This document shows positions 10,848 to 29,658 of a stretch of DNA of 64,000 bases, piece by piece. This DNA is from Candidatus Heimdallarchaeum aukensis (GTDB lineage: Archaea; Asgardarchaeota; Heimdallarchaeia; Heimdallarchaeales; Heimdallarchaeaceae). The stretch covers positions 864,001 to 928,000 of the forward strand of contig CP084166.1 of NCBI GenBank assembly GCA_021513695.1, written 5' to 3'. Both the position numbers and the translations under genes were made by a program. Every line of letters starts with the position of its first letter. Position 1 is the first letter of the stretch. The notes below the pieces were generated by a model that was not told where the DNA came from, searched no databases, and was given only the letters and a program-made list of their open reading frames with translations.

Positions 10848-11852
10848 TCATCTAAATTTGACACTATCTACATTAGGCATCGAATCTGCTGAATAAATAG
10901 AATCCAACTCAAACAGAGAAAGTATATCAATTGCCCGTTCTAGTTGCTCTTTTGTAATATTTTCCTTCCATTTATCGATAATACTTCCACCGGATATTAA
11001 TGCACTTTCCTTTCTTACTTCGGGAGAAGGTTTCTTTAGAACTCTATAAATAGATTGATCATAATTTTTTCCTAAAAATTGGAATAATTTATCTATTTCT
11101 TCTTCAGGTGAAACAGCATATTTTTCATAAAAAGTTACAAGTATTTCATCTTTTGAAAACTGTTTTAGTGGGACATAATTCTCAATACACCATAAAAAGA
11201 TATTCTTCTCAAAAGTAGTCTGAGCATGTAAAATATCTTTCTTAAAGGGATTCAAGAAATCTTCCATTAGCTCTTCCTGAGAAAGTAAAACATCCAGATG
11301 GTCTTCCCAATTTAATTTTATTCTAGAGTTAGCCACTGCTCCGGGATGTCTTAGAAGTAAAATAATTTTTATTTCAGGAAACTGGGTTTTGATCCATTTT
11401 AGCATTAAATTAGCTCGGATATCTTTAACAAGCCTTTTTTTGCACAGAAACTTTTTATTAAATCTGTCTACCCATTTGTTTCTTATTTTTCCTGAAAGAA
11501 TTTTTCTTGCTGGTTCTAAATACTTTTCATCATTGTTCTCAGGTCTAAGATATTGCCTATACTTGAAATCTTTACAGACATCAACAAAGTATGAGTGAAA
11601 TGGCTCAAAAATGTACCTATAACTGTTATCATAATTAATGATATTTGAAACCCATGTTGTACCACTTCGTCCTGTTCCAGCTAGAAAAATGGTATTCTCA
11701 TAATTGCTATCTAAATTAATATATAATCTACTATGAATCTTGATTTTGATTGAATCAAGTAATGTTCCTTCATCGATTTTTCTTTTTATTTTATTTACTA
11801 TATTACTCATACAATCACTTTTTAGAATTAGATAAAACCCCATTTTTTCCAA
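10848..11852 (-). CDS. PAPS-dependent sulfotransferase
   Basis: 5-prime PSB loop AGTGRSGTTWVSNII and 3-prime PB-like LRHPGAVANSRI are characteristic of the sulfotransferase fold. Confidence 0.7.
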   Translation of the reverse strand: MEKMGFYLILKSDCMSNIVNKIKRKIDEGTLLDSIKIKIHSRLYINLDSNYENTIFLAGTGRSGTTWVSNIINYDNSYRYIFEPFHSYFVDVCKDFKYRQYLRPENNDEKYLEPARKILSGKIRNKWVDRFNKKFLCKKRLVKDIRANLMLKWIKTQFPEIKIILLLRHPGAVANSRIKLNWEDHLDVLLSQEELMEDFLNPFKKDILHAQTTFEKNIFLWCIENYVPLKQFSKDEILVTFYEKYAVSPEEEIDKLFQFLGKNYDQSIYRVLKKPSPEVRKESALISGGSIIDKWKENITKEQLERAIDILSLFELDSIYSADSMPNVDSVKFR

Positions 11853-12751
11853 TGCTCATTTAAAACTTTGATTACATTATCTGGACTGTGATATCTTAAT
11901 GCAATATCTTTTTTACCTTTTTTAGTTTCACTCTTTAGGATTTGCAGAATAGAATCTTTTAAATTATTAGGGTTTAAGAAACCAATTACCTCTTTCATCT
12001 CTTCATAATCGATATATTGCTCTGAATAGTAAGTTCCTACAGAAACGTCACAAAAAAGAGCTTCAATTGAAATCACATTATATGTCAAACCTGTGCTAGG
12101 GTTTGCATGATCAATAATCAAATCACAGAAATTTATAGTATCACATATTTTTTCTCTGGGTATTGGTTTGTTGATGAAGTGAATATTGAAAGTTTTTTCA
12201 TTATTTATTTCTTCAATTGCTTTACTAATTAGATCAGAACCTTTTATTTTTGGTGAATGAGCAAAATGACCTATAACATAATCAAATCCATTCTCATCCT
12301 TGAATTGCTCTTTTTTTTCTTTTACTTCCTCTTTCGAATAAAATTCGTCAGGATTTACACAGCGAGGAAGAAAAATAGAATTAGGACTATAATTTATTAA
12401 CTCTTTAAGTGAGACAAATGAAGGTTCTTGAGGTTTAACAGTTCCAAGTCTTAAATCAGAACCATGATAATGAAAGCAAGTATTTCTTGCTCTTACTAAT
12501 TGTGGATAAGTACCATTGACCACCTGAATATCAAATTTTCTCAACAACCAACCAAAAGCCATCCAAAACCCTGTTCTCAGATAATTTTTCCACAAAGGCC
12601 CTTGAACACTTCCTAATTTAAAATACTGTTCAGGAAGATTGGCATATTTATTGCTCTGAAGAAAATAAGTTACTTCGTGACCTTGTCTTTCTAGCTCTCT
12701 TCCAATAAGAAAATGTTGACTAGCATAGTCACCAATAATAGCAATTCTCAT
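11828..12751 (-). CDS. Uncharacterised Rossmann-like protein with HYHGSD motif, possible GT-B glycosyltransferase
   Basis: N-terminus MRIAIIGDYASQHFLIGRELERQGHEV resembles a GT4 N-domain. It shares the motif FHYHGSDLRLG with the paralog at 18457-19401 (IIHYHGSDIRFK). Confidence 0.4.
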   Translation of the reverse strand: MRIAIIGDYASQHFLIGRELERQGHEVTYFLQSNKYANLPEQYFKLGSVQGPLWKNYLRTGFWMAFGWLLRKFDIQVVNGTYPQLVRARNTCFHYHGSDLRLGTVKPQEPSFVSLKELINYSPNSIFLPRCVNPDEFYSKEEVKEKKEQFKDENGFDYVIGHFAHSPKIKGSDLISKAIEEINNEKTFNIHFINKPIPREKICDTINFCDLIIDHANPSTGLTYNVISIEALFCDVSVGTYYSEQYIDYEEMKEVIGFLNPNNLKDSILQILKSETKKGKKDIALRYHSPDNVIKVLNEHWKKWGFI

Positions 12752-12864
12752 TTTTAGTTCCTATCAGTATTCTTATTGACAACCTCAGATTTCTCTATAA
12801 AGATATTTCGCTTATATTCCTCAATAAGCATATGTATAAGAATTTCAAACTTATTTTTTTAAGT

Positions 12865-13998
12865 CTATATCATTATATTTGTCTCTATTTCTAGTTCGTG
12901 TTCTTCGTATCGTTTTATAATCTCATTTACAATTTTTGTACTGCTTTTTCCGTCTCCATAAGGATTTTCCCAATTTATGTTTTTATAATGATCCAAATTG
13001 TCTTTAATTTGTTTAATCGCTGATTTTATTCTTTCTTTTTCTGCTCCTACTAATTGATTAGCACCAATTTCAAGTGTTTCAATCCATTCAGTATTGTCTC
13101 TTAAAGTTATACAAGGAACATTTAGAGTTAAAGCTTCTTTCTGAATTCCTCCGCTGTCAGTAAGAATAGACATAGAATTTACTTCAAGAGAAATAAAATC
13201 AAGATACCCAGTAGGATCAATTGTGATAATATTCTCGTTCTCAATCAAATCTCCTAAATTGTAATCTTTAATACGATTTTTTGTTCGTGGATGAACAGGA
13301 TAAACAATAGTTTCCTCAACTTCATTTAAAGTCTCCAAAATTGTCTTTAATCTTCCTTTGTTGTCAACATTCTCTTTTCGATGGAGAGTTAACAAAAAAT
13401 ACTCTTTTGATTTTAAGCCCAACTTTTTTAGAATTGATGATTGTTTTTTTGCTTTTTTTACATTCCTTAAGATTGCATCAACCATTGTGTCTCCTGTTTC
13501 AAAAATCCATCTCTTATTTATTCCCTCTTTCAATAAATTCTCAGAAGCAGTCATAGATGTTGTAATTAACATTCTACTGATGTGGTCAGTTAACTTTCTG
13601 TTTATCTCTTCAGGCATTCTGAAATCATAGCTCCTTAAACCTGATTCAAGATGAATAACAGGATATTGCAACTTACTTGCTGCTAGAGCTCCAGCAAGAG
13701 TTGAATCAGTATCTCCAGGAACTAAAACAGCATCAGGATCCTCTTCTTTTAATTTTTCTTCTATTTTAATCATCATATTTCCGACTAGCTGAGCATGAGT
13801 TTGAGAATGAATATTTAGATTTACATCAGGAGGAGGAAGAGACAATTCTTGAAAAAATATAGAAGACATATTTTCATCAAAATGTTGGCCTGTGTGTAAA
13901 TGATAGAAATCCATTTTTGGCTCTTCTAACATATCTTGTATTATTGGTGATAGTTTGATAAATTGGGGTCTAGCTCCCGATATGATAAATACTTTCAT
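12865..13998 (-). CDS. wecB: UDP-N-acetylglucosamine 2-epimerase (non-hydrolysing), WecB/MnaA type
   Basis: MKVFIISGARPQFIKLSPII, HLHTGQHFDENMS, VPGDTDSTLAGALAAS and HLESGLRSYDFRMPEEINRKLTDHIS are diagnostic WecB blocks. The likely start is the internal MKVF (ORF track starts 14 codons earlier). Confidence 0.85.
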   Translation of the reverse strand: MKVFIISGARPQFIKLSPIIQDMLEEPKMDFYHLHTGQHFDENMSSIFFQELSLPPPDVNLNIHSQTHAQLVGNMMIKIEEKLKEEDPDAVLVPGDTDSTLAGALAASKLQYPVIHLESGLRSYDFRMPEEINRKLTDHISRMLITTSMTASENLLKEGINKRWIFETGDTMVDAILRNVKKAKKQSSILKKLGLKSKEYFLLTLHRKENVDNKGRLKTILETLNEVEETIVYPVHPRTKNRIKDYNLGDLIENENIITIDPTGYLDFISLEVNSMSILTDSGGIQKEALTLNVPCITLRDNTEWIETLEIGANQLVGAEKERIKSAIKQIKDNLDHYKNINWENPYGDGKSSTKIVNEIIKRYEEHELEIETNIMI

Positions 13999-14023
13999 TT
14001 TAACACCTTGTTTAATATACTTT

Positions 14024-15418
14024 TTATTCTCCAATTCCAACTATGACTCTTTTATCATTTTCTCTCTCATTTATATGACCAAAAATATGGCGAGTATCAA
14101 TAATAGCATAAGGATTATTTGCTTGTTCGTCAAAGAATGAGATATCTAACTCTTTGTAGTGGCTATGGTCAGTAAGAATTACTATACAGTCGCTGTTATG
14201 AATCGCTTTTTTCAAATCCTCTTCAAATTTGATATCAATTATTTCTCTTAGTTCTTCTTCTTTATAGAGTGGATCATGTAAAACAATTTTTGCTTCGTAT
14301 TCTTTTAGTCCTTTTATGACATCAAATGTTGGAGAATATCTATATTCTTTAACATTTCCTCTATAAGCTAACCCTAAAAGGGTAATTTTTGAGCCTTTAA
14401 GGTTTTTATTTACTTTATTCAGCGCAATAATTGTACGATTGACTACATGATAAGGCATTGAGAGATTGATTTCTCTCCCTTTTTTTGTTAATGCTGCACT
14501 TATTCCAAATTGGTCTGCAATATTAATTAAAAATTGTGGATAAACAGGAATACAATGTCCTCCAACTCCAGCACCAGGTCTATGAATATGGGAGAAAGGT
14601 TCACTGTTTGCAGCTTTTATCACTTCATGGACATTAACACCTATTTTTTCTGAAATTTTAGCAAATTCATTAGCCAATGCTATGTTTACATCTCGATAAA
14701 TCCCCTTAAATATCTTAACAGCTTCTGCAGCTGTCGATGAACTCATCTGAATAACACCTTTTTTAGCTATAGTCTCATAAAGCAAAGCGATTCGTTCAGT
14801 ACTTCTAGGATCTACACCACCCACAATTTTTGGATAATTATCTCTGATATCTTCTATTGCTCTACCACTATAAGTGCGTTCAGGAGCAAAACCTAACCCA
14901 AAATCTTTTCCTGCTTTAAGACTAGATATTTGTTCCAACTGCTTCTTAACGATTTGCTCAGTAGTTAAAGGAGGAACAGTACTTTCAATAACTATTAACT
15001 TCCCAGGTTTCATATAAGCTCCAATCGAATTTATTAGCTTAATTACAGGTTGAAGTTCTGGGTTTCTATATTTATCAATTAAAGTAGGGATTATGATTAT
15101 TATAACATCGGATTCATCTACAGCTTTCTCTAATGAGAGCGTGCACTCAAACTTTTTCTCTTTCAAACCTTTTCTAATTCCTTCAATAACTCCAGGTTCA
15201 CCTATTATAGGTGGATTACCTTCATTGATCTTTTGAACAGTTTCAGGGTTAACATCTACTCCAATAACTCTATACCCTGCTTCAAGAAAGACCACATCAA
15301 TTGGTAGACCCATTTTTCCTTGTCCAATAACCGCTATAGTCAAAGACCTATTTTCTAATAACTTAATGGCTTCATCTTTTGAAATTATAAAATATCCCAT
15401 GTTTTCCATTCTCTCCAC
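14024..15418 (-). CDS. wecC: UDP-sugar 6-dehydrogenase; by synteny with wecB likely UDP-ManNAc dehydrogenase (WecC-like)
   Basis: N-terminal NAD fold IAVIGQGKMGLPIDVVF and catalytic-Cys block GAGVGGHCIPVYP. It lies directly downstream of wecB on the same strand. Confidence 0.8.
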   Translation of the reverse strand: MERMENMGYFIISKDEAIKLLENRSLTIAVIGQGKMGLPIDVVFLEAGYRVIGVDVNPETVQKINEGNPPIIGEPGVIEGIRKGLKEKKFECTLSLEKAVDESDVIIIIIPTLIDKYRNPELQPVIKLINSIGAYMKPGKLIVIESTVPPLTTEQIVKKQLEQISSLKAGKDFGLGFAPERTYSGRAIEDIRDNYPKIVGGVDPRSTERIALLYETIAKKGVIQMSSSTAAEAVKIFKGIYRDVNIALANEFAKISEKIGVNVHEVIKAANSEPFSHIHRPGAGVGGHCIPVYPQFLINIADQFGISAALTKKGREINLSMPYHVVNRTIIALNKVNKNLKGSKITLLGLAYRGNVKEYRYSPTFDVIKGLKEYEAKIVLHDPLYKEEELREIIDIKFEEDLKKAIHNSDCIVILTDHSHYKELDISFFDEQANNPYAIIDTRHIFGHINERENDKRVIVGIGE

Positions 15419-15562
15419 AAAGAAATTATTAACTATTTCATCATTTCAAAACATCAAGTCTTAAATCTTTCTTTTAAAATAACAATAGGAAATGGGATGT
15501 GTTTTAGTAGATATTCTTAAATACCTCTCTCCCTCAATTGCTTTAAGTTTCGGTGAAATATC
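15419..15562. promoter_or_regulatory. Divergent promoter region between wecC (-) and the Wzx-like flippase (+)
   Basis: 144-bp AT-rich spacer between divergent genes. No confident BRE/TATA assignment. Confidence 0.25.
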
Positions 15563-17143
15563 TTGTATTCTGAAGAAAAAGGGAATCTATTAAAAAGAGG
15601 ATCAGGCTCTCACTTTGTAATCATTTTTTTCTTGTCGTTCGTTTTATCAAAACTATTCAGCATGGCCTTCAACAAGATTTTCACCAATGTGTTAACGAAA
15701 ACAGAGATGGGTAGATATGCCATTTTTATATCTGCAATTACCACAATTTTTACTTATTCAACACTGGGCTTCCCAGCGGCTTTAAATAGATTTACTGTAA
15801 CTTATAAAGAGAGAAAACAATTAGAAAATCTCAAGAATTTTCTTACTACAGGATTTATTATTTTCCTTGCAGCTGAACTGACGATAACTTCCATTCTAAT
15901 AATTCTATACTATACTACTGGTTTTACACCTAAATTTCTAAATATTGAACCTTACATCATAACTTTAATTATTGTAAGTCTAGTAGCAATAACACAGATA
16001 TTCAGTACAATGTGCTATGTTATCGCAAGTGCTTTACAGAATAGTAGATATTATGCAATAATAATGATCATGAGAGTTTTTTTACAGATACCCTTTGGAT
16101 TCTTGTTTGTAGTTTTCTTGAATTTAGGAGTATTTGGCTTAATCCTAGGCCTTCTACTTTCTGAATTCATTGTTGCATTATATAGTTTTTATTACTTGGT
16201 GAAAGATGTAGGAATTGGTAAATTTTCTTGGGAAGAGGGAAAGGCAATGCTATCCTTCTCAGTACCAGGTTACATAGCAGCCATTTTTATTAGTTCTTTT
16301 GATTTAGGTCTAAAAGTCTTTGTAGATTATGTTTTTCCTGCTGAAGGAAAAGAAATTATAGCCTTATACCAGTATGGTGCATTGGCAGTAGTAAATATTC
16401 TTTTAGTAGCTGGTAATTTATTTAGAGTTGTCTACAGGCCCATTATTTTCAAATACTTTGAACAAAAAAAGTACAGAGAAATTCAGACTCTTACAATCAC
16501 GATTTCAAAATTATTTACAATTACAATTGTTTTTTCTGCAATCTTTCTTTTTGCGTTCTCTCCACTCTTGATTCCATTTTTGACCAAGTCTTCTTATCTA
16601 TCTAGTATATCTGTAATTCCTATTCTAATGCTCTCGACTATTATAGGTTACTTAAGAACATTGATAACTTATGGACACACGTTATACTACAAGAATTATT
16701 GGAATGCTATAGCTGCAATAACTGCAATAATAATTTCAGCAATAATTGGTTATTTTATCATTCCTACTCTTGGATTGATAGGTTTAGGATTAGTTTATCT
16801 TTCACTTACGAGTATCCAATTCTTTATTTTATTCTTTGTCTCTCAACATTATTTCAAAGTAAAATTTGAAATTAAATTAATTATAAAGATTTTAGTTTTA
16901 TGCGGAGTTTCAATGGGAACAGGAATAATTTTTAATGTTACTATCTTTTCATTCTCTGAACACTCCTTAATTTACTCCTTTCTTCTAAGTTCATTTATTT
17001 ATATTATAGGCATCTTCCCTTTGAGACTCATAGGAAAAAAAGATATAGAATTCCTGAAGTCTGTAATAAAGACATATATCAATATTATTAAGTCCAAGAA
17101 TAGCTTAGAAAAAAAGAATTCAAAAAAAAAGAATAGACATTAA
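15563..17143 (+). CDS. Wzx-like oligosaccharide flippase (MOP superfamily polysaccharide biosynthesis protein)
   Basis: 526 aa with about 14 TM helices. The length and charge distribution are typical of Wzx/MurJ-type transporters. It is divergently arranged from wecC. Confidence 0.65.
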   Translation: MYSEEKGNLLKRGSGSHFVIIFFLSFVLSKLFSMAFNKIFTNVLTKTEMGRYAIFISAITTIFTYSTLGFPAALNRFTVTYKERKQLENLKNFLTTGFIIFLAAELTITSILIILYYTTGFTPKFLNIEPYIITLIIVSLVAITQIFSTMCYVIASALQNSRYYAIIMIMRVFLQIPFGFLFVVFLNLGVFGLILGLLLSEFIVALYSFYYLVKDVGIGKFSWEEGKAMLSFSVPGYIAAIFISSFDLGLKVFVDYVFPAEGKEIIALYQYGALAVVNILLVAGNLFRVVYRPIIFKYFEQKKYREIQTLTITISKLFTITIVFSAIFLFAFSPLLIPFLTKSSYLSSISVIPILMLSTIIGYLRTLITYGHTLYYKNYWNAIAAITAIIISAIIGYFIIPTLGLIGLGLVYLSLTSIQFFILFFVSQHYFKVKFEIKLIIKILVLCGVSMGTGIIFNVTIFSFSEHSLIYSFLLSSFIYIIGIFPLRLIGKKDIEFLKSVIKTYINIIKSKNSLEKKNSKKKNRH

Positions 17144-17156: not shown

Positions 17157-18155
17157 TCACATAAATACATTATAATCAAGAGACCTATTAAAAATATAGG
17201 TAAACAATTTCTCCTTTTTCACTGGTAAAAATCTTGATTTTCGAGGTTGTGAGAGAATTGGATAGTCATAATCATATAATATTTTTCTGAAATATTTAGT
17301 TATATAATATTTCTCAAGAGTATTGATTTCTTTCTTCCAAACTTCTAGATTATCTGCAGAGATACCTTGAAACTGTTTGTTGAGACTTGAATTTCCCAAC
17401 CACAACTTCCCTTTGATAGTTGGTTTAAGAAGAATAGGATCATATTTTACTCCAATGAAATCAGCTAATTCTTTCATAGATTTTTCAGGATTAGTCAAAA
17501 TATCTTCATATTTAATAACATGATAAGAATCAGGAAACAGCTCTAAATTACGATACATGTGGTAGAAAGAATTTTTCAGAGAAAGTAAAGGAACACTAAT
17601 TTTGGGATATTTTCCTTTATTCACAGCCTTTTGTAAATAACGTCTGTAACTAACCAGATTAGAATATGGATTGCGTAACACACGTATAAATTTGGCATCT
17701 GGAAAGAGTTTTTTCAATAAAGGTACAAATTCATCATGTTCTACAGATTTTTCTACAAAACGTTTCGTTTCTACGTAGTCTTCTTCATAAAAGGAAGCAT
17801 AAATTGCTTGGAAGTAAAGTTCAACAAGATCTTTAAAATCATCAACTTCTTTCTCAATTTTTTGATTGAATATAGAAAGGTTGAACATTCCTATTCTACT
17901 TGAAGAATCATGACTAAAATCTTGCTTTACAGTATTAATTTTTTTAATATGTTTCTTAAAATTGTCTTTTATTTCCTTAAATGAAAGATCTTGAGGGTAA
18001 GTCTTTCTCCCTCGATAATCAACCCATCGTCCAGATAATTGGAAAATGTGTGTTTCAAAAGGAATACTAAAAAGTTCAGGATGATTATCTAGTAATCTTA
18101 ATAGTAAAGTTGTACCACTCTTATGTGGACCTACAATGAAAATGGGATTATTCAT
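17157..18155 (-). CDS. PAPS-dependent sulfotransferase
   Basis: IVGPHKSGTTLLLRLL (5-prime PSB P-loop) and RVLRNPYSNLVSYRRY (3-prime PB) were read directly from the sequence. Confidence 0.7.
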   Translation of the reverse strand: MNNPIFIVGPHKSGTTLLLRLLDNHPELFSIPFETHIFQLSGRWVDYRGRKTYPQDLSFKEIKDNFKKHIKKINTVKQDFSHDSSSRIGMFNLSIFNQKIEKEVDDFKDLVELYFQAIYASFYEEDYVETKRFVEKSVEHDEFVPLLKKLFPDAKFIRVLRNPYSNLVSYRRYLQKAVNKGKYPKISVPLLSLKNSFYHMYRNLELFPDSYHVIKYEDILTNPEKSMKELADFIGVKYDPILLKPTIKGKLWLGNSSLNKQFQGISADNLEVWKKEINTLEKYYITKYFRKILYDYDYPILSQPRKSRFLPVKKEKLFTYIFNRSLDYNVFM

Positions 18156-21289: not shown

Positions 21290-22126
21290 CTAGTTTGAAA
21301 TATTTTTTGATTTTTAGCTTGCTTTTTTTTCATTATTAATTCATTCCTTTTTATTTTATGATTTTTCTGTTGCGATTTACTTGAATATTTAGAAACACTT
21401 CTTCTAAATCGTAATTTAGTAGCTGATTTTGCTCTCTGTCTAAATATCATCCATGAATTATCTTTTTGTTATCTTTTCCTACTCTATCAGTGGAATGGTA
21501 CAAACGATGAAATTTAAAGGTTTCAAAGTACTAACATCATCTAGGAATTATGAGACACTATTGAAGTATTTAACTCTTCGCTCAACGAGCAGCTATAATA
21601 TTCTGATTACTAGTGAATAGGTTGATTTAAGCATCTAGTTAAGGCACTTTTAGGAATGGTTTTTTTACATCTTTTCTCATTTCCAGTACCTCTTTTTGAA
21701 CATAGTTCGTTTCTTTTTTAGAGTAGATCACATAGTTATTACCAGAATCATATATAAACTAGACATTTTTTGAAGGAAGAAAATAACTGCAAAAAAGAAA
21801 CTCAAAGTTACATTCAGCCATTTTTTTAAATAAAATCACATTTCCCCAATATTCTAAAATCATTTTTACAACATTTTCAGGACTATGATACTTCATACAA
21901 TCACTTTAAAAAGATTTGAACTTGAATTTTTACAAAACTTAAAAAAATAGATTCATAACCGAATTTCAAGAGCTTCTGCAAAGATGCACTCTCATTAGCT
22001 ACATTTATTGTAAAGATGAAAGTAACTTAAAAACATTAACTATCATTTCTTTTTATTCCTACTATATGAATAAAACAATCAATTGTTAATAAGTAATATT
22101 TTTATTTTCTATCCTAATTTTAAATT

Positions 22127-24004
22127 GTGAGATATAAAGATCCATTTCTTATTCCAATAATGCAAATTAGTAAAAAAAAGAAATTAAGGAATGAGGAAAA
22201 GATACAATTAATAGAAAATATTTTTCAGAAAATAATAAAATTTACAGGAGAAAATAGAGAAATACGAAAAAAAATAGAAGAAATAAGAAAAATCATTGCT
22301 AAGAGCGGAATAGAAATTAATAAAGAAATCAACAATTTGAACAATTTAAACGATTTAAATAATTTAAATAATTTAAACAAGAAACTCAACTTTAGTTTAG
22401 ATGAAAGAAAATCAAATATTTTTATCACTCCTTATCATCTTTCACTAATCACAAGTATTTGCTCTACAGACCCTAAAAGCAATGGAGAGTTTAACACACC
22501 GTTCTATATAGCAGAATACTTGGCAGAAAGAGCAATAAAATACTATTTAACAGAAAACAAAGCAGAAGAAAAATCAGATAACAAAACAGAACAAAGTAAA
22601 CTACTTAGATTAAAGTTTGCAGATATAGCTAGTGGAACAGGAAACTTGATACTCGCTCTCTTATATAAATTAAAAGAAAGAATAAAAAAGGAAGAAGAGA
22701 TAGAAAATGAAGAATTAATAGAGTTTATCAGTAACAACATTTATTGTTACGATAATAACCAATTAGCACTAAAAATAAATGAGCTTAGACTATTCTTATT
22801 CATCAAATTTACTATGGAAGAAGCAGAATTAAGAAAAGTAAATTTTAAAACAATAAAAACAAATACTTTGGATAAAGAAAAAATAAAGAAAAACAATTAT
22901 TTTGATATTATTTTAATAAATCCACCTTTCAAAACTTATGGATTAAGAAATGGGCAAAAGTATAGCCAAGAATTAAAGAACTATTTAAGAAAAGAATATA
23001 AGACCGCAGAGTATAAACTTCCACTTTATCCACTATTCATGGAAAGAGCAATAGAATTGTTAAGAAAAAGAGGAGTTCTTGGAGTAGTTAGCCCAGATAG
23101 TTTTTTGTTAGGTAAATATTACTCAAAAATAAGAAGTTATATTCTCAACAATACTACAATTAAAGAAATAACACTATTAGACTATGAACCCTTTGAAAAA
23201 GTAACACTAGGAAGAACAGCGCTAAGTTTCTATATGAAAAAAAATGAAAAAGAAAAAAAACAGAATCAAATAATCACGAAAAAAATAAGCAATTACCAAA
23301 CTTTCACTCACAAAAATGAGATTGATAAGAAGTACTTGAACAATGAAAAAAAATTCCTAAAAAATGATCTAAATAGATTTTTTCTGTTCTTTAATGAGAA
23401 AGAAGAAAAGATAGTAGAGAAATGGATTGAAAAAGCAGATTGTAAACTAGAAGATCTGGTAACAATCCACACAGGAATAAGAAGTAAAATAGGCCAAAAA
23501 AAGATCATTAGCTTAAAAAAACATGATGAAAATTGGAAAAAAGGAATATTATCAGGAAAACAAATAAAACCTTTTTATTTAGAATACAAAGGACATTGGA
23601 TAAATGTTGATCCAACTATATTATGGGCAGGAGGTTATAATGAGGAGATAATAGAAAATCCTAAATTGTTAATAAGACAAACAGGAGATAAAATAATTGC
23701 ATGTGTAGATACTAATGGCTATTACCACTTGAATAATATTCACTCACTTTCTCCAAAAGACGAAACAGTTGACCTTTACTCCTTATCAGTTATCTTAAAT
23801 TCAAAAGAATTTAATCAAGTCTATAGAATTTTAAGTATGGAAAAAAAAAGAACATTTGCTCAAATAGACATAGATTTTTTCCTCAAAATGCCGATAATAT
23901 ACTTTTCAAAAGAAAAAAAAACACTTTATGAATTTTATCTAAAAGAAAGCACCAAACAGAAAAAAAGAATAGAAATAGAATCATATTTATTAGATAATAT
24001 TTAA
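22127..24004 (+). CDS. N6-adenine DNA methyltransferase (gamma-class, Eco57I/TaqI-like MTase domain plus C-terminal target-recognition region), apparently orphan
   Basis: Motif I FADIASGTGNLILALLYKL and motif IV DIILINPPF. About 350 aa of C-terminal non-catalytic sequence. No nuclease domain or neighbouring restriction gene was found. The N-terminal ~110 aa are low-complexity (NNLNNLNDLNNLNNLNKK). Confidence 0.7.
   Translation: MRYKDPFLIPIMQISKKKKLRNEEKIQLIENIFQKIIKFTGENREIRKKIEEIRKIIAKSGIEINKEINNLNNLNDLNNLNNLNKKLNFSLDERKSNIFITPYHLSLITSICSTDPKSNGEFNTPFYIAEYLAERAIKYYLTENKAEEKSDNKTEQSKLLRLKFADIASGTGNLILALLYKLKERIKKEEEIENEELIEFISNNIYCYDNNQLALKINELRLFLFIKFTMEEAELRKVNFKTIKTNTLDKEKIKKNNYFDIILINPPFKTYGLRNGQKYSQELKNYLRKEYKTAEYKLPLYPLFMERAIELLRKRGVLGVVSPDSFLLGKYYSKIRSYILNNTTIKEITLLDYEPFEKVTLGRTALSFYMKKNEKEKKQNQIITKKISNYQTFTHKNEIDKKYLNNEKKFLKNDLNRFFLFFNEKEEKIVEKWIEKADCKLEDLVTIHTGIRSKIGQKKIISLKKHDENWKKGILSGKQIKPFYLEYKGHWINVDPTILWAGGYNEEIIENPKLLIRQTGDKIIACVDTNGYYHLNNIHSLSPKDETVDLYSLSVILNSKEFNQVYRILSMEKKRTFAQIDIDFFLKMPIIYFSKEKKTLYEFYLKESTKQKKRIEIESYLLDNI
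22331..22380. repeat. 9-bp tandem repeat (aatttaaac-like, ~5 copies) encoding an (N-L-N)n tract in the MTase N-terminus
   Basis: caatttgaacaatttaaacgatttaaataatttaaataatttaaac, read directly from the sequence. Confidence 0.6.
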
Positions 24005-24327: not shown

Positions 24328-25395
24328 TTATATTTTTTCGTTGCTAAAATCTTTATTTTTTTTCAAGTATTCTTTAGTTTCGATATTCTTTAACCACCAC
24401 TCATTTTCTAAATACCACTCTATTGTTAGTTGAATACCTTCTTCAAAATCGATTGTTGGAAACCAGTTCAGTTCATTTTTTATCTTTGAAATATCGATCG
24501 CATATCTTCTATCATGCCCTAATCTGTCTTTAACGTGTTTAATTAAAGTTTCATTAATTTTAGTGTCTTTTGTTTTCTCATATAAATAAGAAATTATTTT
24601 TTTTACAACATATATATTCTTTCTCTCATTTTGAGCTCCAATATTATATATCTCACCTATCCTTCCTTTTTCAAAAACCAAGTCGATTGCTCTACAATGA
24701 TCAGTGACAAATATCCAATCTCTTACTTGATTTCCATCTCCATATATAGGTAGATTCTTATGGTTCAATGCATTTTGTATCATTAATGGAATTAATTTTT
24801 CGGGGAATTGGAAGGGTCCGTAGTTATTAGAACATCTAGTAATATTTACTGGCATCCTATATGTATCAAAGTACGCTTTTACTATCAAATCTGCAGATGC
24901 CTTACTTGCAGAATAAGGACTATGCGGATCAAGAGGAGTTTTTTCTGTAAAAGCACCTGTAGGACCTAGAGAACCATATACTTCATCTGTTGATATTTGC
25001 AAGAATTTCTTATTTGCAATCCATTCTTCATTGTGATACCAATTTTTTTTACATATTTCAAGAAGTGAATATGTGCCTAAAATATTTGTTTGAAGAAATA
25101 TTTGTGGATTAGCAATAGATCTATCAACATGGGATTCTGCAGCGAAATTAATAACTCCATCTATATCTTTATAGGTTTCAAATATTTTCCTTAATAACTC
25201 AAAATTATTAATATCTCCTTTAATAAAAATAAACCTTGACTTTTGATCTTCAGTTAAATTTTTCCAATTTTCAACGTTACCAGCATAAGTAAGTTTGTCG
25301 ATACCAATTATTTCTCTATCAGGATATCTATCAAGATAATAATAAAGAAAATTACTTCCAATAAATCCTGCAACGCCAGTTACTAATATTTTCAT
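24328..25395 (-). CDS. rfbB: dTDP-glucose 4,6-dehydratase
   Basis: MKILVTGVAGFIGSNF Rossmann start and YSASKASADLIVKAY (YxxxK) block. The length fits RmlB, and it is the last gene of the rfbA-C-D-B run. Confidence 0.9.
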   Translation of the reverse strand: MKILVTGVAGFIGSNFLYYYLDRYPDREIIGIDKLTYAGNVENWKNLTEDQKSRFIFIKGDINNFELLRKIFETYKDIDGVINFAAESHVDRSIANPQIFLQTNILGTYSLLEICKKNWYHNEEWIANKKFLQISTDEVYGSLGPTGAFTEKTPLDPHSPYSASKASADLIVKAYFDTYRMPVNITRCSNNYGPFQFPEKLIPLMIQNALNHKNLPIYGDGNQVRDWIFVTDHCRAIDLVFEKGRIGEIYNIGAQNERKNIYVVKKIISYLYEKTKDTKINETLIKHVKDRLGHDRRYAIDISKIKNELNWFPTIDFEEGIQLTIEWYLENEWWLKNIETKEYLKKNKDFSNEKI

Positions 25396-25418
25396 TCCTA
25401 ATACTTCCTCTATGTTTT

Positions 25419-26267
25419 TTATTTGATCAATTCAATTTCCTCTAAAAATTTGATAGTAGCATCTTGCCAAGAAGGTAGTTTGTATCCAATTACTTCTTCT
25501 AAACCAAATGGGTCTAAAACTGATAAGAAAGGTCTTTTAGCAGGTGTATTAAACTCATGAGAGAGAGCAGGAAGAAGCTCTCCTTCCCACTCTATTTTAT
25601 TTAATATATATTCAGCCCATTGATATCGTGAACAATATCCAGAATTTGTCATATGATACAACCCATAATTTTCTGTTTTTATCAAGTTGTAAGTTGCATC
25701 TACAATATCGTTTGTATAACTTGGTGATGATATCTGATCAATAACGATTCTTATTTTTTTTCTATTTCTACTCCATTTTATAGTTTTAGTTATAAAGTTT
25801 TCATTACCTTTCCCAAAGACCCAGCTTAACCTTACTAAAAAAAACCTATTAGCGATATTTTGTACATTCTTTTCACCCAGCACTTTACTTTCTCCGTATT
25901 TTGAAATGGGAGATGGTTTATCATAAATTGTATAGGGATAACCTTTACATCCATCAAAAACATAGTCAGTAGAGTAATGGACAAGTATAGCATCTAATTC
26001 ATTCGCAAGTAAAGCTAAGTTTTTTGGACCAAGCCCATTGATTCGATAAGCAGATTGCCAGTCATTTTCAGCATTGTCTACTGCATTATAGGCAGCACAA
26101 TTAATAATTATATCAATATCTTTATTTGAAACATATTCCCGTAATTTTTTAAAATTTGTAATATCTAATTCGACATCAGTAGCAAAAAAACTAATTCCCT
26201 TTTTTAAAAAAAAGGTTTGGAATGATTGACCTAATTGTCCTTTTGATCCTGTAATTAATATTCCCAT
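25419..26267 (-). CDS. rfbD: dTDP-4-dehydrorhamnose reductase
   Basis: MGILITGSKGQLGQSF N-terminus, about 280 aa, sits between rfbC and rfbB. Confidence 0.85.
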   Translation of the reverse strand: MGILITGSKGQLGQSFQTFFLKKGISFFATDVELDITNFKKLREYVSNKDIDIIINCAAYNAVDNAENDWQSAYRINGLGPKNLALLANELDAILVHYSTDYVFDGCKGYPYTIYDKPSPISKYGESKVLGEKNVQNIANRFFLVRLSWVFGKGNENFITKTIKWSRNRKKIRIVIDQISSPSYTNDIVDATYNLIKTENYGLYHMTNSGYCSRYQWAEYILNKIEWEGELLPALSHEFNTPAKRPFLSVLDPFGLEEVIGYKLPSWQDATIKFLEEIELIK

Positions 26268-26414
26268 ATAATCACCATTAAATTTTCATAAATATATCTT
26301 TTATGTGATTCAAATTTGAAATACTATAAAGCAACTCCTACGAACTAATTTCTTAATTAATGCATATATTATTCTCTTTCTTACATACCTTTTTAGCTTA
26401 ACTTCTTAATTAAA

Positions 26415-26996
26415 TCACTTTTCGTATTTAAAAGGTAATTCAATATCTTTCAAAAATGGTAATTTAGAATCTTTCTCTGAAATAATTAATCTTGAATCTT
26501 CAATCTTGTCTAAAGGCCATTTAATGTTTATATCTGGATCATTCCACCTGATTCCTCTATCATATGCTGAATAATAATAATCAGTTGTTTTGTAAACAAA
26601 TTCAGTCTCTTCAAGGGCAAGAAATCCATGAGCAAAACCTTTAGGAATATAAAACATGCGTTTGTTTTTTTCAGAAAGTTCTACACCATAATACTGACCA
26701 AAACTGGGAGAACCTACTCTTATATCAACAGCAACATCAAACACTCTTCCTTTGATTACACGTACTAATTTTCCTTGAGAGTGCTTAGATTGAAAATGTA
26801 ATCCTCGTAGAACTCCTTTTGAAGATTTAGAGTGGTTATCTTGTACAAAATCCACGTTTAATCCAATTTTGTTAAATTCCTTTTTATTATAAGTTTCCAT
26901 AAAAAATCCTCTTTCATCGTAAAAAATTACTGGTTCAATAATAAATGCCCCTTCCAATATTGTTTCAATTTTATTAAATTTTAACATATAAATCAC
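26415..26996 (-). CDS. rfbC: dTDP-4-dehydrorhamnose 3,5-epimerase
   Basis: Cupin with the RGLHFQ block and KLVRVIKGRVFDVAVDIR. 193 aa. Confidence 0.9.
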   Translation of the reverse strand: MIYMLKFNKIETILEGAFIIEPVIFYDERGFFMETYNKKEFNKIGLNVDFVQDNHSKSSKGVLRGLHFQSKHSQGKLVRVIKGRVFDVAVDIRVGSPSFGQYYGVELSEKNKRMFYIPKGFAHGFLALEETEFVYKTTDYYYSAYDRGIRWNDPDINIKWPLDKIEDSRLIISEKDSKLPFLKDIELPFKYEK

Positions 26997-27143
26997 CGTA
27001 AATCTTTACTATAATTTTTGGATTAGTTTATCTCATAATCATGTTTATTTTTTGTCACTGTTGTACTATTGAAATGAAATTAATTTTATTCTATTAAATC
27101 TATTGAATTACATTATACTTTGTAATATGTAGATGAAAAATTT

Positions 27144-28007
27144 TTAAATAAGACTTAATAAATACCTTCCATAATCAGAATTTGAGTGCTCTTTTGCTAA
27201 ATTTTTAAGTTGATCGGTGTCAATATATCCAAGTCTGAATGCAATTTCTTCTAAACAAGCAATATAATATCCTTGCCTTTTTTGAATAGCTGCAACAAAA
27301 TTACTAGCTTCTATTAAACCATCAAATGTTCCAGTATCAAACCAAGCTAATCCACGTCCTAATAATTTGACTTTCAACTTTCCTCTTTTTAAATATTCAA
27401 TATTAAGATCAGTAATTTCTAGCTCTCCTCTTGGAGATGGTTTAAGATTTTCTGCATATTTAATTACATTATTATCGTAGAAATATAAACCAGGTATAGC
27501 ATAATTTGATTTTGGAAAAGCTGGTTTCTCTTCTATGGAGATAACATCCATAGTTTCTTCATTGAATTCTACAACTCCAAAAGCGGTGGGATTATTTACA
27601 TAGTAACCAAAGATTAAGGCTCCTTCCTTTAAAGTAGTTGCTTTTCTTAAAATTGAAGAAAAACCTTGACCATAAAAGATATTATCACCTAAAATTAGTG
27701 CAACATTATCAGAACCAATAAATTCTTTACCAACAATGAAAGCATCAGCTAACCCTCTTGGTTTTTCTTGAATTTTATATGAAAACTGAACACCAAGTTG
27801 AGAACCATCTTTTAATAAATTCTTGTAGTCTATAATATCTCTTGCTGTTGAGATAATTAAAATATCTTTTATCCCAGCAAGAAGAAGTGAAGAAAGTGAG
27901 TAATAAATCATAGGTTTATCATAAACTGGTAGAATTTGTTTTGAAATTGCTTTTGTTATGGGATATAATCTTGTTCCTGTTCCTCCAGCCAATACAATTC
28001 CTTTCAT
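27144..28007 (-). CDS. rfbA: Glucose-1-phosphate thymidylyltransferase
   Basis: [36 protein letters not shown] is the canonical RmlA N-terminus. Confidence 0.9.
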
Positions 28008-28340: not shown

Positions 28341-28500
28341 CTTGGTCTAACCTACTGTAACTCCGATCTTTTTTCAACCTCTCTTACTACAATTTTAGCC
28401 TTGCTCACCAGTCTATTAACTTCCTAACTTTGGAAAATAATTTATGAACCAACCCTAAGTTTTTGACATTCAAAAGTGTAACCCCCTATAGAGAGTGAAT
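28341..28500. repeat. Intergenic repeated element, copy A (intact); a homologous copy at 43246-43317 plus 44081-44200 is split by the IS6-like insertion
   Basis: Shared core cttggtctaacctactgtaactc[c/a]gatct...tttt...cctctcttactacaatttt. The downstream cttcctaac...aataatttat...caaaagt[gt]taaccc blocks align by eye between the two loci. Confidence 0.5.
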
Positions 28501-28773
28501 ATAAGAAATAAAAGCAAAAATCAATAAAAATTTTCTTATAGGTATTGTTTCTTTTTCTAAATTACACTTCTGAATCAGAAGCTGAAGTTGTATCAGAATA
28601 ACTGTTTAAATACAAATATGATGTTACAGACTTCATAAATTGTATTTCTTGGAGTTACATCAACTTATATAATAAAATCATAATACATAGTTTAACAAAG
28701 CTGGTGACTGATAACTTATTTTAGTAAAATGTATTCTTATTTTTCATATCAATTGTTGAAAATTTTATTATTT

Positions 28774-29658
28774 TTATTCATCAAATGAATACCAATTATG
28801 TAAATCAATCTCAAATAATTTTTCGAATTTAATAATATCATCTAAAAAGTATTCATTAATTAGTTTTTCTTTTAATTCAACATTTATTTTTTTCTTGTCA
28901 AGTGGTTTTTTATTAAAGTTCATCAGTAATTTAGATAGTTTGTATCTAAAAGTTTCATCCGGAATAATACATCTGATTATTTTTTTAGCAAAATTATCTT
29001 TGTATATAAAATCTCGTATAAATTTGTTCTTTGATTCATAAGCTTCATTCTTTAAAATGTTTAAATTAAGGTCGTATTTTGGAATATCAAGAAAAGAAAA
29101 TAATTTATCGATCATCTTTTTAATGTTTAAACATAAATCGTATTCAAAATTAAAAATTATAAAATTCTTCTTATGGAAAAAATCTAGATATTTTTGAATG
29201 TTTAGATAATACATTCCTTTTTCAAGATAATTATATCTTTGATAATAGGGATGATTTGCATTTAATTCTTTTATCTCCCTTTGGATAGCTTCTTCAAAAG
29301 TTAATTTTTCATAACCTCGTCGAACATTCATTAAATAGTGAGAATATGCTCGTTCCACAGGATCTCTTACAATTAAGATAAATTTTACACCATTTCCAAA
29401 AGCATTATAGATTCTTTTTGGTACTTGCTTATAGTACAAATATTCAGGTGCTACTTCACCTAAATAGGAACTTTCATCACATTTAAAGAACGTTGAGAAA
29501 TACCAATCTAAACCTTTCTTGAACTTTCTGTCTAAATCAAAGAATCTAGTTTCTTTGATATCAGGAAGACATAACTTTGGATGCTGTTTTAGAATAGAAT
29601 GAATTGTTGTTGTTCCTGCTTTTTGAGCACCTATACAGAAGAAAGATACCTTTGGCAT
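28774..29658 (-). CDS. PAPS-dependent sulfotransferase
   Basis: FFCIGAQKAGTTTIHSIL (5-prime PSB) and ILIVRDPVERAYSHY (3-prime PB). Confidence 0.7.
   Translation of the reverse strand: MPKVSFFCIGAQKAGTTTIHSILKQHPKLCLPDIKETRFFDLDRKFKKGLDWYFSTFFKCDESSYLGEVAPEYLYYKQVPKRIYNAFGNGVKFILIVRDPVERAYSHYLMNVRRGYEKLTFEEAIQREIKELNANHPYYQRYNYLEKGMYYLNIQKYLDFFHKKNFIIFNFEYDLCLNIKKMIDKLFSFLDIPKYDLNLNILKNEAYESKNKFIRDFIYKDNFAKKIIRCIIPDETFRYKLSKLLMNFNKKPLDKKKINVELKEKLINEYFLDDIIKFEKLFEIDLHNWYSFDE

Follow-up and report, generated by a model that had tools for sequence, protein, structure and literature searches.

A probable cell-surface glycan island with three PAPS-type sulfotransferase genes in the Asgard archaeon Candidatus Heimdallarchaeum aukensis

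Candidatus Heimdallarchaeum aukensis PM71 is an Asgard archaeon whose genome (GCA_021513695.1) contains a probable cell-surface glycan island of about 50 kb on contig CP084166.1. Here we describe the 64,000 nt from position 864,001 to 928,000 of this contig, referred to as the window. Three ORFs on the minus strand, named ST1, ST2 and ST3, encode sulfotransferases and lie exactly where the original prediction had placed them (Table 1). At least two of the three (ST2 among them) are already labelled "sulfotransferase" in GenBank, and no fourth sulfotransferase was detected in the window by six-frame phmmer. The start of ST1 is uncertain: a TTG start at 11852 would lie within the upstream gene, and gene prediction programs begin a few codons downstream.

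Table 1. Features of the glycan island, with positions in the window
Feature	Position	Strand	Evidence
GT4 glycosyltransferase	1962-3155	+	Pfam Glycos_transf_1 5e-44
Wzx-type flippase 1	3152-4714	-	Pfam Polysacc_synt 5e-07
NosD/beta-helix protein, candidate glycoprotein, 24 N-X-S/T sequons	4599-6962	+	Pfam NosD 4e-52, Beta_helix
Polytopic membrane protein	6965-8923		Unassigned; no Pfam/NCBIfam match to Wzy or O-antigen ligase
GT4-like glycosyltransferase downstream of ST1	9461-10705	-	Pfam Glyco_transf_4 6e-08
ST1, PAPS-type sulfotransferase, about 320-334 aa	10848-11852	-	Pfam, motifs, AF2
GT4-like protein, 307 aa, stop overlapping ST1 ORF	11828-12751	-	Weak Glyco_transf_4 match
UDP-GlcNAc 2-epimerase, WecB-like	12865-14040	-	Pfam Epimerase_2 7e-111
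UDP-sugar dehydrogenase, WecC-like	14024-15418	-	Pfam UDPG_MGDP_dh N, central and C domains
Wzx-type flippase 2, convergent with ST2, 14 nt apart	15563-17143	+	Polysacc_synt 5.9e-06
ST2, PAPS-type sulfotransferase, 332 aa, UJG41559.1	17157-18155	-	Pfam; exact match to NCBI 'sulfotransferase'
GT4-like protein upstream of ST2	18457-19401	-	Pfam Glyco_transf_4 1.6e-06
rmlB-rmlD-rmlC-rmlA, dTDP-L-rhamnose synthesis, downstream of ST3 (RmlA, UJG41566.1)	24328-28007	-	Pfam GDP_Man_Dehyd/Epimerase, RmlD_sub_bind, dTDP_sugar_isom, NTP_transferase
ST3, PAPS-type sulfotransferase, 294 aa, UJG41567.1	28774-29658	-	Pfam Sulfotransfer_1; resembles heparan-sulfate 3-OST/NDST
GT2 glycosyltransferase, divergent from ST3	29842-30810	+	Pfam Glycos_transf_2 3.8e-19
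Polytopic membrane protein, 688 aa	31258-33324	+	No Pfam, NCBIfam or PDB match
Wzx-type flippase 3	33428-34687	-	Pfam Polysacc_synt 3.2e-06
Further glycan genes: GT4-like, GT2 (DPM1/AglJ-like size), two GT1, epimerase, GMD-like and DegT aminotransferase	35741-50998		Pfam
TauE/SafE (TSUP) anion transporter	56160-57221	+	Pfam TauE 1.3e-21

The island holds three Polysacc_synt proteins, at least ten glycosyltransferase-like genes, of which five are clear GT1/GT2 members and the others weak GT4-like matches, and the three sulfotransferases. The interleaving with flippases, glycosyltransferases and nucleotide-sugar genes that had been described was recovered, with three Wzx-type genes, GT4, GT2 and GT1 enzymes, WecB/WecC-like proteins, rmlABCD and a GMD/DegT pair. 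Two of the three flippases match Polysacc_synt just under the Pfam cut-off, flippase 2 scoring 26.3 bits against a threshold of 28.2 bits. ST1 and ST2 share a module with the order GT4-like, ST2, Wzx, WecC, WecB, GT-like, ST1, GT4-like. ST3 sits apart in the rhamnose (rml) module, which has a separate flippase and a GC content of 0.22-0.25 vs 0.284 window-wide. The GT4-like protein whose stop overlaps ST1 is probably co-translated with it, and the WecB/WecC-like gene pair implies a UDP-ManNAcA pathway. By its position, the 688-aa membrane protein is a candidate polymerase or GT-C. IS activity is evident among the further glycan genes, as two identical DDE IS copies, one rve IS and decayed GMD/DegT fragments.

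All three proteins were placed in Pfam sulfotransferase families by the profile search that the original prediction had called for, above the curated gathering cut-offs of 22 bits for Sulfotransfer_1 (PF00685) and 27 bits for Sulfotransfer_3 (PF13469). The respective matches to the two families were 2.8e-13 (50.3 bits) and 2.1e-10 (41.7 bits) for ST1, 7.6e-14 (52.2 bits) and 2.3e-28 (100.4 bits) for ST2, and 1.5e-14 (54.4 bits) and 8.1e-12 (46.3 bits) for ST3. The only NCBIfam match was to NoeE, at 17-24 bits and far under the family cut-off of 500. The three are distant paralogues with less than 25% identity to one another, and come from three different subfamilies that are widespread and largely bacterial-like. 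They lack TM segments (maximum KD19 at most 1.04 vs more than 2.6 for membrane proteins) and are predicted to be soluble and cytoplasmic.

The P-loops of the form xGxxxSGTT and the 3'-PB motifs that had been reported are present in all three proteins, except that ST3 has Ala (KAGTT) where Ser had been written. ST1 carries AGTGRSGTTW (5'-PSB R48-S49-G50-T51-T52) and RHPGAVANS (3'-PB R154-H155-P156...S162); ST2 carries GPHKSGTT (K12-S13-G14-T15) and RNPYSNLVSYR (R161-N162-P163...S169, R171); ST3 carries GAQKAGTT (K13, T16) and RDPVERAYS (R98-D-P100-x-x-R103-x-x-S106). These PAPS-binding motifs are kept in at least 90% of family members (120-147 sequences per family). The candidate catalytic Glu is E69 in ST1 (invariant in 120 homologues), E34 in ST2 (invariant, and aligned with the CurM sulfotransferase at the Glu of its 'ELHLL' stretch) and E68 in ST3 (60-90% conserved, and aligned with the Glu of 'IEKSPAY' in 3-OST); we take the aligned residues to be catalytic in these reference enzymes.

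AF2 models of ST1 and ST2 were confident (pLDDT 92.4 and 93.6, respectively) and predict a sulfotransferase fold, and the top 50 PDB matches listed by Foldseek comprised only PAPS-dependent sulfotransferases and proteins closely related in fold (retinol dehydratase, for example). The assignment as PAPS-type sulfotransferases is therefore supported by profiles and motifs for all three proteins and by predicted fold for ST1 and ST2. In structure, ST1 and ST2 come closest to sulfotransferases acting on protein tyrosines and polyketides rather than to carbohydrate enzymes, so that their acceptor class is read entirely from gene context. For ST2 the best Foldseek matches were CurM/OLS ST and TPST, which are also its best matches in sequence. 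ST1 and ST2 share with these enzymes the R/K-SG-T/S-T loop followed by a conserved Glu about 21 residues on; however, identity is 15-20%, the acceptors of CurM/OLS and TPST are acyl-ACP beta-hydroxyls or peptide tyrosines, and the window has no PKS or secretory-pathway features.

ST3 aligned end to end with PDB 3rnl (6e-28) and also with heparan-sulfate 3-OST-5, -1 and -3 (1e-14 to 1e-11) and NDST (1e-9), the nearest characterised enzymes, whose acceptors are carbohydrate. The shared core includes the 5'-PSB Lys, the Glu position (GEvaPeY vs IEKSPAY) and the RDPxxRxxS 3'-PB, and the residues conserved in the ST3 family are K13, T16, E36, E68-P71-Y73 and R98-P100-R103-S106. Identity is nevertheless about 25-30%, the protein nearest to ST3 comes from bacteria and is itself uncharacterised, and ST3 is predicted to be cytoplasmic, not a Golgi type-II membrane protein, in a window without a glycosaminoglycan synthase. 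No ST3 homologue above 44% identity was found among 1.84 billion representatives.

Several sulfotransferases in one archaeal glycan locus had been considered uncommon, but the arrangement is recurrent rather than unusual in Heimdallarchaeaceae: among sibling contigs, L009 carries four such genes and the JGI contigs L003 and L004 two. The ST2-Wzx-GT-ST1 module is kept at 91-96% amino-acid identity in L003/L004, including the GT-ST1 pair, and a counterpart of the GT4-like gene upstream of ST2 adjoins ST2 there. The counterpart of the GT4-like gene downstream of ST1 adjoins the ST1 orthologue in L004 and L009, and the ST2-Wzx adjacency is kept in L003, L004, L005 and L006. Values of dN/dS were 0.17 for ST1 (0.06 against L009), 0.09 for ST2, 0.07 for the GT4-like gene overlapping ST1 and 0.055 for flippase 2. 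The range of 0.06-0.17 for the sulfotransferases, over dS of up to about 2, indicates that ST1 and ST2 are functional and under long-term purifying selection in Heimdallarchaeaceae.

Glycan genes also surround the homologues outside this family. In Hodarchaeota (L005), an ST2 homologue lies beside Wzx, GT2, GT1 and epimerase genes, 3.6-6.7 kb from an APS kinase and an ATP sulfurylase and about 9 kb from TauE. The ST2 homologue of Virgibacillus (L013) is accompanied by a second sulfotransferase, Alg13/14-like genes, GT4s, an O-antigen-ligase-like gene and LCP, as well as ATP sulfurylase, a Na/sulfate symporter, APS kinase and a CysQ-like gene; that of Thorarchaeota (L012) occurs with Alg13/14-like genes and GT2s. 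In the cyanobacterium Gloeocapsopsis, an ST1 homologue (58% identity) directly follows GT2-GT4-GT4 and an ABC exporter. Since glycan loci also house the homologues from four other phyla, two of these loci with Sat and CysC, sugars are the most likely acceptors of ST1-ST3.

The reported absence of PAPS synthesis genes from the window was confirmed: neither ATP sulfurylase nor APS kinase was found by Pfam in ORFs of at least 90 aa (except a few short, overlapping or IS-derived ones), nor Sat or CysC by tblastn with Asgard queries over all 64 kb. Other Heimdallarchaeaceae and Hodarchaeales carry both Sat and CysC. Among the 120 top-ranking relatives listed for an Asgard CysC, which reach down to 61% identity, are Hod-, Heimdall- and Promethearchaeota proteins and none named Heimdallarchaeum. 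The TauE/SafE protein is a possible sulfate carrier, a weak link: TauE-family genes flank Sat/CysC or sulfotransferase loci in L005, in L009 and in Heimdallarchaeia MAGs from the literature, and no similarity was detected between the window protein and the partial TauE sequences of L005 and L009.

A characterised parallel is the synechan (xss) cluster of Synechocystis PCC 6803, a Wzx/Wzy cluster with two sulfotransferases of different subfamilies and about 2 sulfates per repeat (PMC8205485). Both loci combine several PAPS-type sulfotransferases of distinct subfamilies (PF00685/PF13469) with many glycosyltransferases, Wzx and rhamnose, and homologues of ST1 at 55-60% identity occur in other cyanobacteria. 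Synechan has as many sulfotransferases as sulfates per repeat; ST1 and ST2 together could put two sulfates on one repeat. The archaeal host differs in having no outer membrane and no PCP/OPX genes, and the window, known here from its genes, has no recognisable Wzy, priming transferase or XssQRS-like regulator set; the comparison with xss is one of cluster content, not of XssA/XssE sequence. Among archaea, a glycosylation cluster of Halobacterium salinarum also encodes more than one sulfotransferase: Agl30 and Agl31 act on a lipid-linked oligosaccharide before its transfer, each sulfating a different one of its sugars (PMC11980604). They belong, however, to the alkaline-phosphatase/sulfatase superfamily and not to the P-loop PAPS fold of ST1-ST3 (PMC11980604); no Sulfatase or Phosphodiest domain was found by Pfam in the window ORFs, and the haloarchaeal cluster is anchored by aglB, which the window lacks. 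The rhizobial and mycobacterial carbohydrate sulfotransferases NodH, NoeE and Stf0/Stf1/Stf9 are PAPS-dependent enzymes acting on glycolipid or oligosaccharide acceptors, often from loci with dedicated PAPS genes (nodPQ), as is the case for the L005 and L013 homologues of ST2. The fold matches include Stf1 and Stf9, and the likeness to NoeE, at the low scores given above, falls short of showing orthology.

With three PAPS-type sulfotransferase genes intact among sugar-building genes, sulfated surface glycans are probable, and their production by three cytoplasmic PAPS-type enzymes is the best explanation of the locus, one we consider fairly likely. It is unlikely that the enzymes are active on non-glycan acceptors (small metabolites, sugar-free membrane lipids or protein tyrosines) in a coincidental glycan neighbourhood. 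Such a role would agree with TPST1/2, CurM/OLS ST domains and cytosolic SULTs being the structures that ST1 and ST2 match best, and with the lack of assignable acceptor-binding residues, but the glycan context of ST1 and ST2 homologues recurs in five independent lineages, a GT-like gene has its stop inside the ST1 ORF and ST3 aligns best with carbohydrate sulfotransferases. Also against such a role, known TPSTs work in a secretory compartment, whereas ST1-ST3 have neither signal peptide nor TM segment. Intact motifs, purifying selection, the four genes retained in the sibling MAG (L009) and the Sat and CysC of other Heimdallarchaeaceae and Hodarchaeales make it very unlikely that the genes are horizontally acquired passengers, non-working in a host that makes no PAPS, even though relatives of all three families are mostly bacterial (ST1 being 55-60% identical to cyanobacterial and planctomycete proteins), the ST3 module is low in GC, the island is riddled with IS elements and Heimdallarchaeum is missing from the 120 CysC relatives.

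The final carrier is a matter on which the sulfated-glycan explanation allows two readings. Multiply sulfated sugars on adjacent sequon-rich surface proteins had been proposed; there are, though, at least two modules with separate flippases, and only the NosD-like protein is sequon-rich (3.0 per 100 aa, z 2.2 vs shuffles), the FG-GAP surface protein having 4 sequons, below expectation (z -1.7). No AglB/STT3 was found in the window by Pfam on its ORFs or by comparing large membrane proteins with PDB AglB/PglB, which leaves N-glycan, polysaccharide and glycolipid as alternatives. It is a real possibility, if somewhat short of even, that the sulfated products are glycolipids or a polysaccharide, whether secreted or capsular, in place of N-glycans on neighbouring proteins; this would agree with the main explanation in all but the final carrier. 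The lack of AglB/STT3, three Wzx-type flippases with two large polytopic membrane proteins as possible polymerases, the ABC exporter beside the Gloeocapsopsis ST1 homologue, the sequon-poor FG-GAP protein and the exopolysaccharide nature of synechan (PMC8205485) all favour such products. Wzy, O-antigen ligase and priming phosphoglycosyltransferase (Bac_transf, Glycos_transf_4) had no Pfam/NCBIfam match in the window. Against glycolipids or a polysaccharide stands the sequon-rich NosD-like protein inside the island; moreover, archaeal AglB is often encoded away from agl genes, and N-glycosylation also uses Wzx-like flippases. Against sulfated glycans of any kind stand the absence of Sat and CysC from the window and the only published Asgard glycoproteome, that of P. 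syntrophicum, which does not report them (PMC11284389).

Under the sulfated-glycan explanation, dTDP-rhamnose, UDP-ManNAcA and a GDP-amino-deoxyhexose would be produced and assembled by GT4/GT2/GT1 enzymes into lipid-carrier-bound oligosaccharides on the cytoplasmic side of the membrane. We infer that the sulfotransferases would transfer sulfate from PAPS to particular sugar hydroxyls of these lipid-linked intermediates before export, after which adjacent Wzx-type flippases would flip the product, which would then be attached to a protein, a lipid or a polymer. Judged from sequence, such glycans would be a plausible extension of a known kind of system. To our knowledge, the only proven archaeal glycan sulfotransferases have a sulfatase-like fold. 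It is conceivable, though quite unlikely, that Heimdallarchaeum lacks the Sat/CysC of its relatives' glycan loci and serves its three to four maintained P-loop sulfotransferases with activated sulfate from an unrecognised route, such as a non-orthologous kinase/sulfurylase or a partner's donor. If so, making sulfated surface glycans with the classical PAPS-type fold would be a trait of the Heimdallarchaeia lineage as a whole.

ST1, ST2 and ST3 are predicted PAPS-type sulfotransferases. Their coordinates in the original prediction were exact, with every ORF on the minus strand, and each scored above curated Pfam thresholds for the sulfotransferase families (Sulfotransfer_1 and Sulfotransfer_3); the sole NCBIfam match for the three was the Nod-factor sulfotransferase NoeE, far below threshold. 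The PAPS-binding motifs are kept in at least 90% of members in the family alignments, built from 120 homologues of ST1, 120 of ST2 and 146 ST3 representatives. E34 of ST2 aligns to the glutamate of 'ELHLL' in the CurM sulfotransferase and E68 of ST3 to that of 'IEKSPAY' in heparan-sulfate 3-OST-5, residues that we take to be catalytic in those reference enzymes. AlphaFold2 models generated from the family alignments reached pLDDT values of 92.4 (ST1) and 93.6 (ST2), and the Foldseek PDB matches listed for them were all PAPS sulfotransferases or close fold relatives, including TPST1/2, CurM/OLS ST, SULT1 and SULT2 enzymes, Stf1/Stf9, NDST and 3-OSTs. The fold of ST1 and ST2 was thereby confirmed, but these fold searches did not distinguish carbohydrate from other acceptor classes. 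ST3 aligned over nearly its full length with 3rnl, a bacterial sulfotransferase (6e-28), and also with heparan-sulfate 3-OST-5/-1/-3 and NDST (1e-14 to 1e-9). A fourth sulfotransferase or a recent duplication was considered and rejected, since a six-frame phmmer search of the window found none and pairwise identity among ST1, ST2 and ST3 is below 25%.

Pfam scans of window ORFs of at least 90 aa placed a glycan island at roughly 2-51 kb, and the interleaving of sulfotransferases with glycan genes proved to be accurately described. In module B, the stop of the GT-like gene overlaps the ST1 ORF, while Wzx-type flippase 2 and ST2 are convergent and 14 nt apart; the epimerase/dehydrogenase pair suggests UDP-ManNAcA as a product. 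The ST3 module has a GC content of 0.22-0.25 versus 0.284 in the window, and because ST3 lies upstream of the rml genes, a rhamnose-containing glycan is a reasonable guess for it. The three sulfotransferases nevertheless fall into two or more modules, each with a flippase of its own, and not into one pathway.

Features of the glycan island and its surroundings (window coordinates)
Feature	Position	Strand	Content or properties
Module A	2-9.4 kb		GT4, Wzx-type flippase 1, NosD/beta-helix protein, two membrane proteins
Module B	9.4-19.4 kb		First part: GT4-like, ST1, GT-like, UDP-GlcNAc 2-epimerase, UDP-sugar dehydrogenase; remainder: Wzx-type flippase 2, ST2, another GT4-like gene
Between modules B and C			FG-GAP/TSP3 surface protein, Eco57I-like methyltransferase
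Module C	24.3-39.4 kb		First part: rmlB-D-C-A, ST3 upstream on same strand, divergent GT2; remainder: 688-aa membrane protein, Wzx-type flippase 3, GT4-like, short GT2
Module D	39.7-51 kb		GT1 genes, epimerase, GMD-like and DegT pair
ST1	10848-11852	minus	5'-PSB R48-S-G-T-T; 3'-PB R154-H-P...S162; downstream Glu E69, invariant
ST2	17157-18155	minus	5'-PSB K12-S-G-T; 3'-PB R161-N-P...R171; downstream Glu E34, invariant; GenBank UJG41559.1, 'sulfotransferase'
ST3	28774-29658	minus	5'-PSB K13...T16; 3'-PB R98-x-P-x-x-R103-x-x-S106; downstream Glu E68, 60-90% conserved; GenBank UJG41567.1, 'sulfotransferase'
Large polytopic membrane protein	6965-8923		652 aa, inside glycan island
Large polytopic membrane protein	31258-33324		688 aa, inside glycan island
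FG-GAP/TSP3 surface protein	19537-21450	minus	C-terminal TM anchor
FG-GAP propeller repeats	20104-21048		7 x 135-nt tandem repeats
TSP3 repeats	19663-19800		2 x 69 nt
Eco57I-like methyltransferase	22127-24004		
Methyltransf_10 RNA methyltransferase	51082-51903		
Decayed GMD-like/DegT duplicate	37530-38196	minus	
Decayed GMD-like/DegT duplicate	39736-40095	plus	
Intact GMD-like and DegT genes	48601-50998		
DDE (DDE_Tnp_1) IS, first copy	40344-41350		GC 0.42
DDE (DDE_Tnp_1) IS, second copy	47463-48470		GC 0.42; transposase split (47495-47890 / 47868-48440)
Insertion relative to H. endolithica	57427-59360		1,934 nt; TnpB/Cas12f-like ORF at 57666-59126
P-loop kinase	59467-60027		186 aa

Neither of the two large polytopic membrane proteins could be assigned as AglB, Wzy or GT-C by a significant Pfam, NCBIfam or PDB match (the 652-aa protein gave a weak Pfam match to DUF1616, E 0.005), and either may be a novel polymerase/ligase or GT-C enzyme. 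No AglB/STT3 was found in the window. The surface proteins nearby had been called sequon-rich, which holds for the NosD-like protein (24 sequons or 3.0 per 100 aa; z 2.2 relative to shuffles of matched composition) but not for the FG-GAP protein, whose 4 sequons fall below expectation. The products of the ST modules may be N-glycans, a polysaccharide or a glycolipid. The FG-GAP protein itself has a propeller of seven blades encoded by tandem repeats, together with bacterial TSP3 calcium-binding repeats.

Related loci were compared for gene order and selection. In JGI contigs of a closely related strain (L003/L004), identity to the window is 96% for ST2 and 91% for ST1, and the gene order GT4-like, ST2, Wzx, GT-like, ST1, GT4-like is kept. 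Nei-Gojobori dN/dS values versus L003 were 0.09 (ST2) and 0.17 (ST1), and 0.06 for ST1 versus another Heimdallarchaeaceae MAG (L009), similar to the values for the flippase and GT next to them; purifying selection acts on ST1 and ST2. Besides an ST1 orthologue (80%), L009 carries three sulfotransferase-like genes from other subfamilies; these are interspersed with GT4/GT1 genes and a Wzx, and a TauE gene comes next. Glycan loci with several sulfotransferase genes are thus recurrent in Heimdallarchaeaceae, and within this family the view that such a locus is uncommon was not upheld.

The ST2 family extends to Thor- and Hodarchaeota (43-48% identity) and many bacteria (35-44%), and the homologues examined beyond the family Heimdallarchaeaceae lie consistently within glycan loci. 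The Thorarchaeota homologue (L012) is accompanied by Alg13/14-like genes and GT2s, and that of Virgibacillus by a second sulfotransferase, Alg13/14-like genes, GT4s, an O-antigen-ligase-like protein, LCP and DegT, as well as ATP sulfurylase, a Na/sulfate symporter, APS kinase and a CysQ-like phosphatase. In Hodarchaeota GCA_048886445.1 (L005), the homologue occurs with Wzx, GT2, GT1 and an epimerase, and within 10 kb of it are APS kinase, ATP sulfurylase, TauE and two Phosphodiest (alkaline-phosphatase superfamily) genes, the latter interleaved with the other three (L005 14601-20999). This superfamily is common to the haloarchaeal sulfotransferases Agl30/31, so enzymes of two types may handle sulfate at the L005 locus. 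The ST1 family is large and unusually conserved (1555 matches), with 55-65% identity in cyanobacteria, Scalindua, KSB1 and Actinomycetota; in Gloeocapsopsis the homologue comes after GT2-GT4-GT4 and an ABC exporter. The ST3 superfamily is very large (33,573 representatives at E <= 1e-3), none of these representatives exceeding 44% identity to ST3.

No TM-compatible hydrophobic segment was detected in ST1, ST2 or ST3, so they should act in the cytoplasm. There they would modify lipid-linked oligosaccharides built by neighbouring GTs, and the adjacent Wzx-type flippases would then export the sulfated products. The ST2-Wzx adjacency, conserved from Heimdallarchaeaceae to Hodarchaeales, fits sulfation before flipping, the order proposed here. 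Sulfation before export is established in Halobacterium, where it takes place on the complete dolichol-phosphate-bound tetrasaccharide (PMC11980604), and the general Wzx/Wzy model applied to synechan also has this order (PMC8205485).

Ca. Heimdallarchaeum aukensis PM71 is an Asgard archaeon from an Auka vent sediment enrichment with a closed genome of 3,081,793 bp (PMC8813620). ATP sulfurylase (Sat) and APS kinase (CysC) had been reported as absent from the window, and Pfam scans of its ORFs of at least 90 aa and tblastn with Asgard Sat/CysC were both negative. With the L005 CysC as query, a clear Asgard CysC clade was found in Hod-, Heimdall- and Promethearchaeota (73-96% identity), and no entry named Heimdallarchaeum occurred among the best 120 matches, down to 61% identity. 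This hints weakly that the Asgard-type CysC may be missing from the genus, with which a fused or divergent enzyme would still be compatible. H. endolithica has neither Sat nor CysC within 10 kb of TauE, a TauE-based search of metagenome contigs returned two short contigs, and the tables supplementing Wu et al. 2022 contain no Sat/CysC-relevant annotation (PMC8813620). Sat, CysC and CysH are reported to be widespread in MAGs of cold-seep Heimdallarchaeia including Heimdallarchaeaceae, often beside TauE, whereas a Kariarchaeaceae MAG from a vent lacks them (PMC11193907). In Heimdallarchaeota GCA_046759345.1 (L014), Sat-CysC lie amid glycan genes and not cysteine-synthesis genes, adjoining a UDP-sugar dehydrogenase, two large PF05935 (arylsulfotransferase-like) proteins and a PMT-like GT-C (L014 8793-19496). 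That ST1 and ST2 are under purifying selection argues that a sulfate donor is available to them.

The 186-aa P-loop kinase beside TauE was considered as a replacement APS kinase, for which support is lacking: it matched only AAA_18 in Pfam and nothing in NCBIfam, its PDB matches were limited to the P-loop, and hhalign against a CysC profile of 120 sequences gave a probability of 2% with similarity likewise limited to the P-loop. The kinase comes after TauE in both Heimdallarchaeum genomes (L002, H. endolithica, 11383-11943), and some other Heimdallarchaeia MAGs have CysC in that position. TauE was also rejected as a shared marker, as no similarity was detected between the window TauE and the partial TauE fragments of L005 and L009 that neighbour ST or Sat/CysC genes; judged by sequence, its link to such loci is at the family level only.

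The island also bears traces of mobile elements. Module D is interrupted by two identical DDE IS copies in direct orientation, an rve IS and decayed GMD/DegT fragments. The DDE copies, the second with a 1-nt indel that splits its transposase, flank a 6-kb segment of GT1, rve-IS, epimerase and GT1 in a composite-transposon-like arrangement. The DegT fragment has 77-79% nucleotide identity to positions 50518-50860, and these fragments point to a probable IS-associated duplication and decay inside the island. The Eco57I-like and Methyltransf_10 genes are adjacent in H. endolithica (L002 135-2362) and L009 (4005-6698), where the pair borders the glycan locus; in the window they stand in opposite orientation, separated by 27 kb that hold modules C and D. 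The window becomes collinear with H. endolithica again only from 54242 onward, apart from an insertion with a TnpB/Cas12f-like ORF between the TauE gene and the P-loop kinase.

By mechanism, the closest characterised analogue is the synechan xss cluster, which combines two sulfotransferases from distinct subfamilies with eight GTs, Wzx/Wzy and rhamnose, and whose product has two sulfates per repeat (PMC8205485). Among Archaea, sulfated N-glycans are known from Halobacterium, and its Agl30/31, so far the only proven glycan sulfotransferases of the domain, have the sulfatase fold and not the PAPS type (PMC11980604). Sulfolobus uses sulfoquinovose instead, as cited in PMC11284389. The sole Asgard glycoproteome to date reports no sulfated glycans (PMC11284389). 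None of the papers searched treated Asgard sulfotransferases. PAPS-type sulfotransferases in glycan clusters are thus of a known kind, computationally well supported here; new is the Heimdallarchaeum lineage, where such clusters had no description and GenBank annotation was already present in generic form. The original observation is confirmed and its interpretation partly supported.

The ST families look bacterial-like and special affinity to eukaryotic enzymes was not observed, for which reason the finding reveals little on how eukaryotic sulfation arose. Heimdallarchaeia are the closest archaea to eukaryotes, and to our knowledge almost nothing is known of their cell surface. If the genes work as inferred, Heimdallarchaeaceae and Hodarchaeales would bear strongly anionic, sulfated surface glycoconjugates, made with a fold shared with eukaryotic glycosaminoglycan and tyrosine sulfation enzymes. 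Several relatives have PAPS synthesis genes inside the glycan loci themselves. A mass shift of +79.957 Da is a concrete glycoproteomics target in existing enrichments. Such a surface would affect the binding of metals, minerals, partners and viruses by an organism whose source site is barite-rich.
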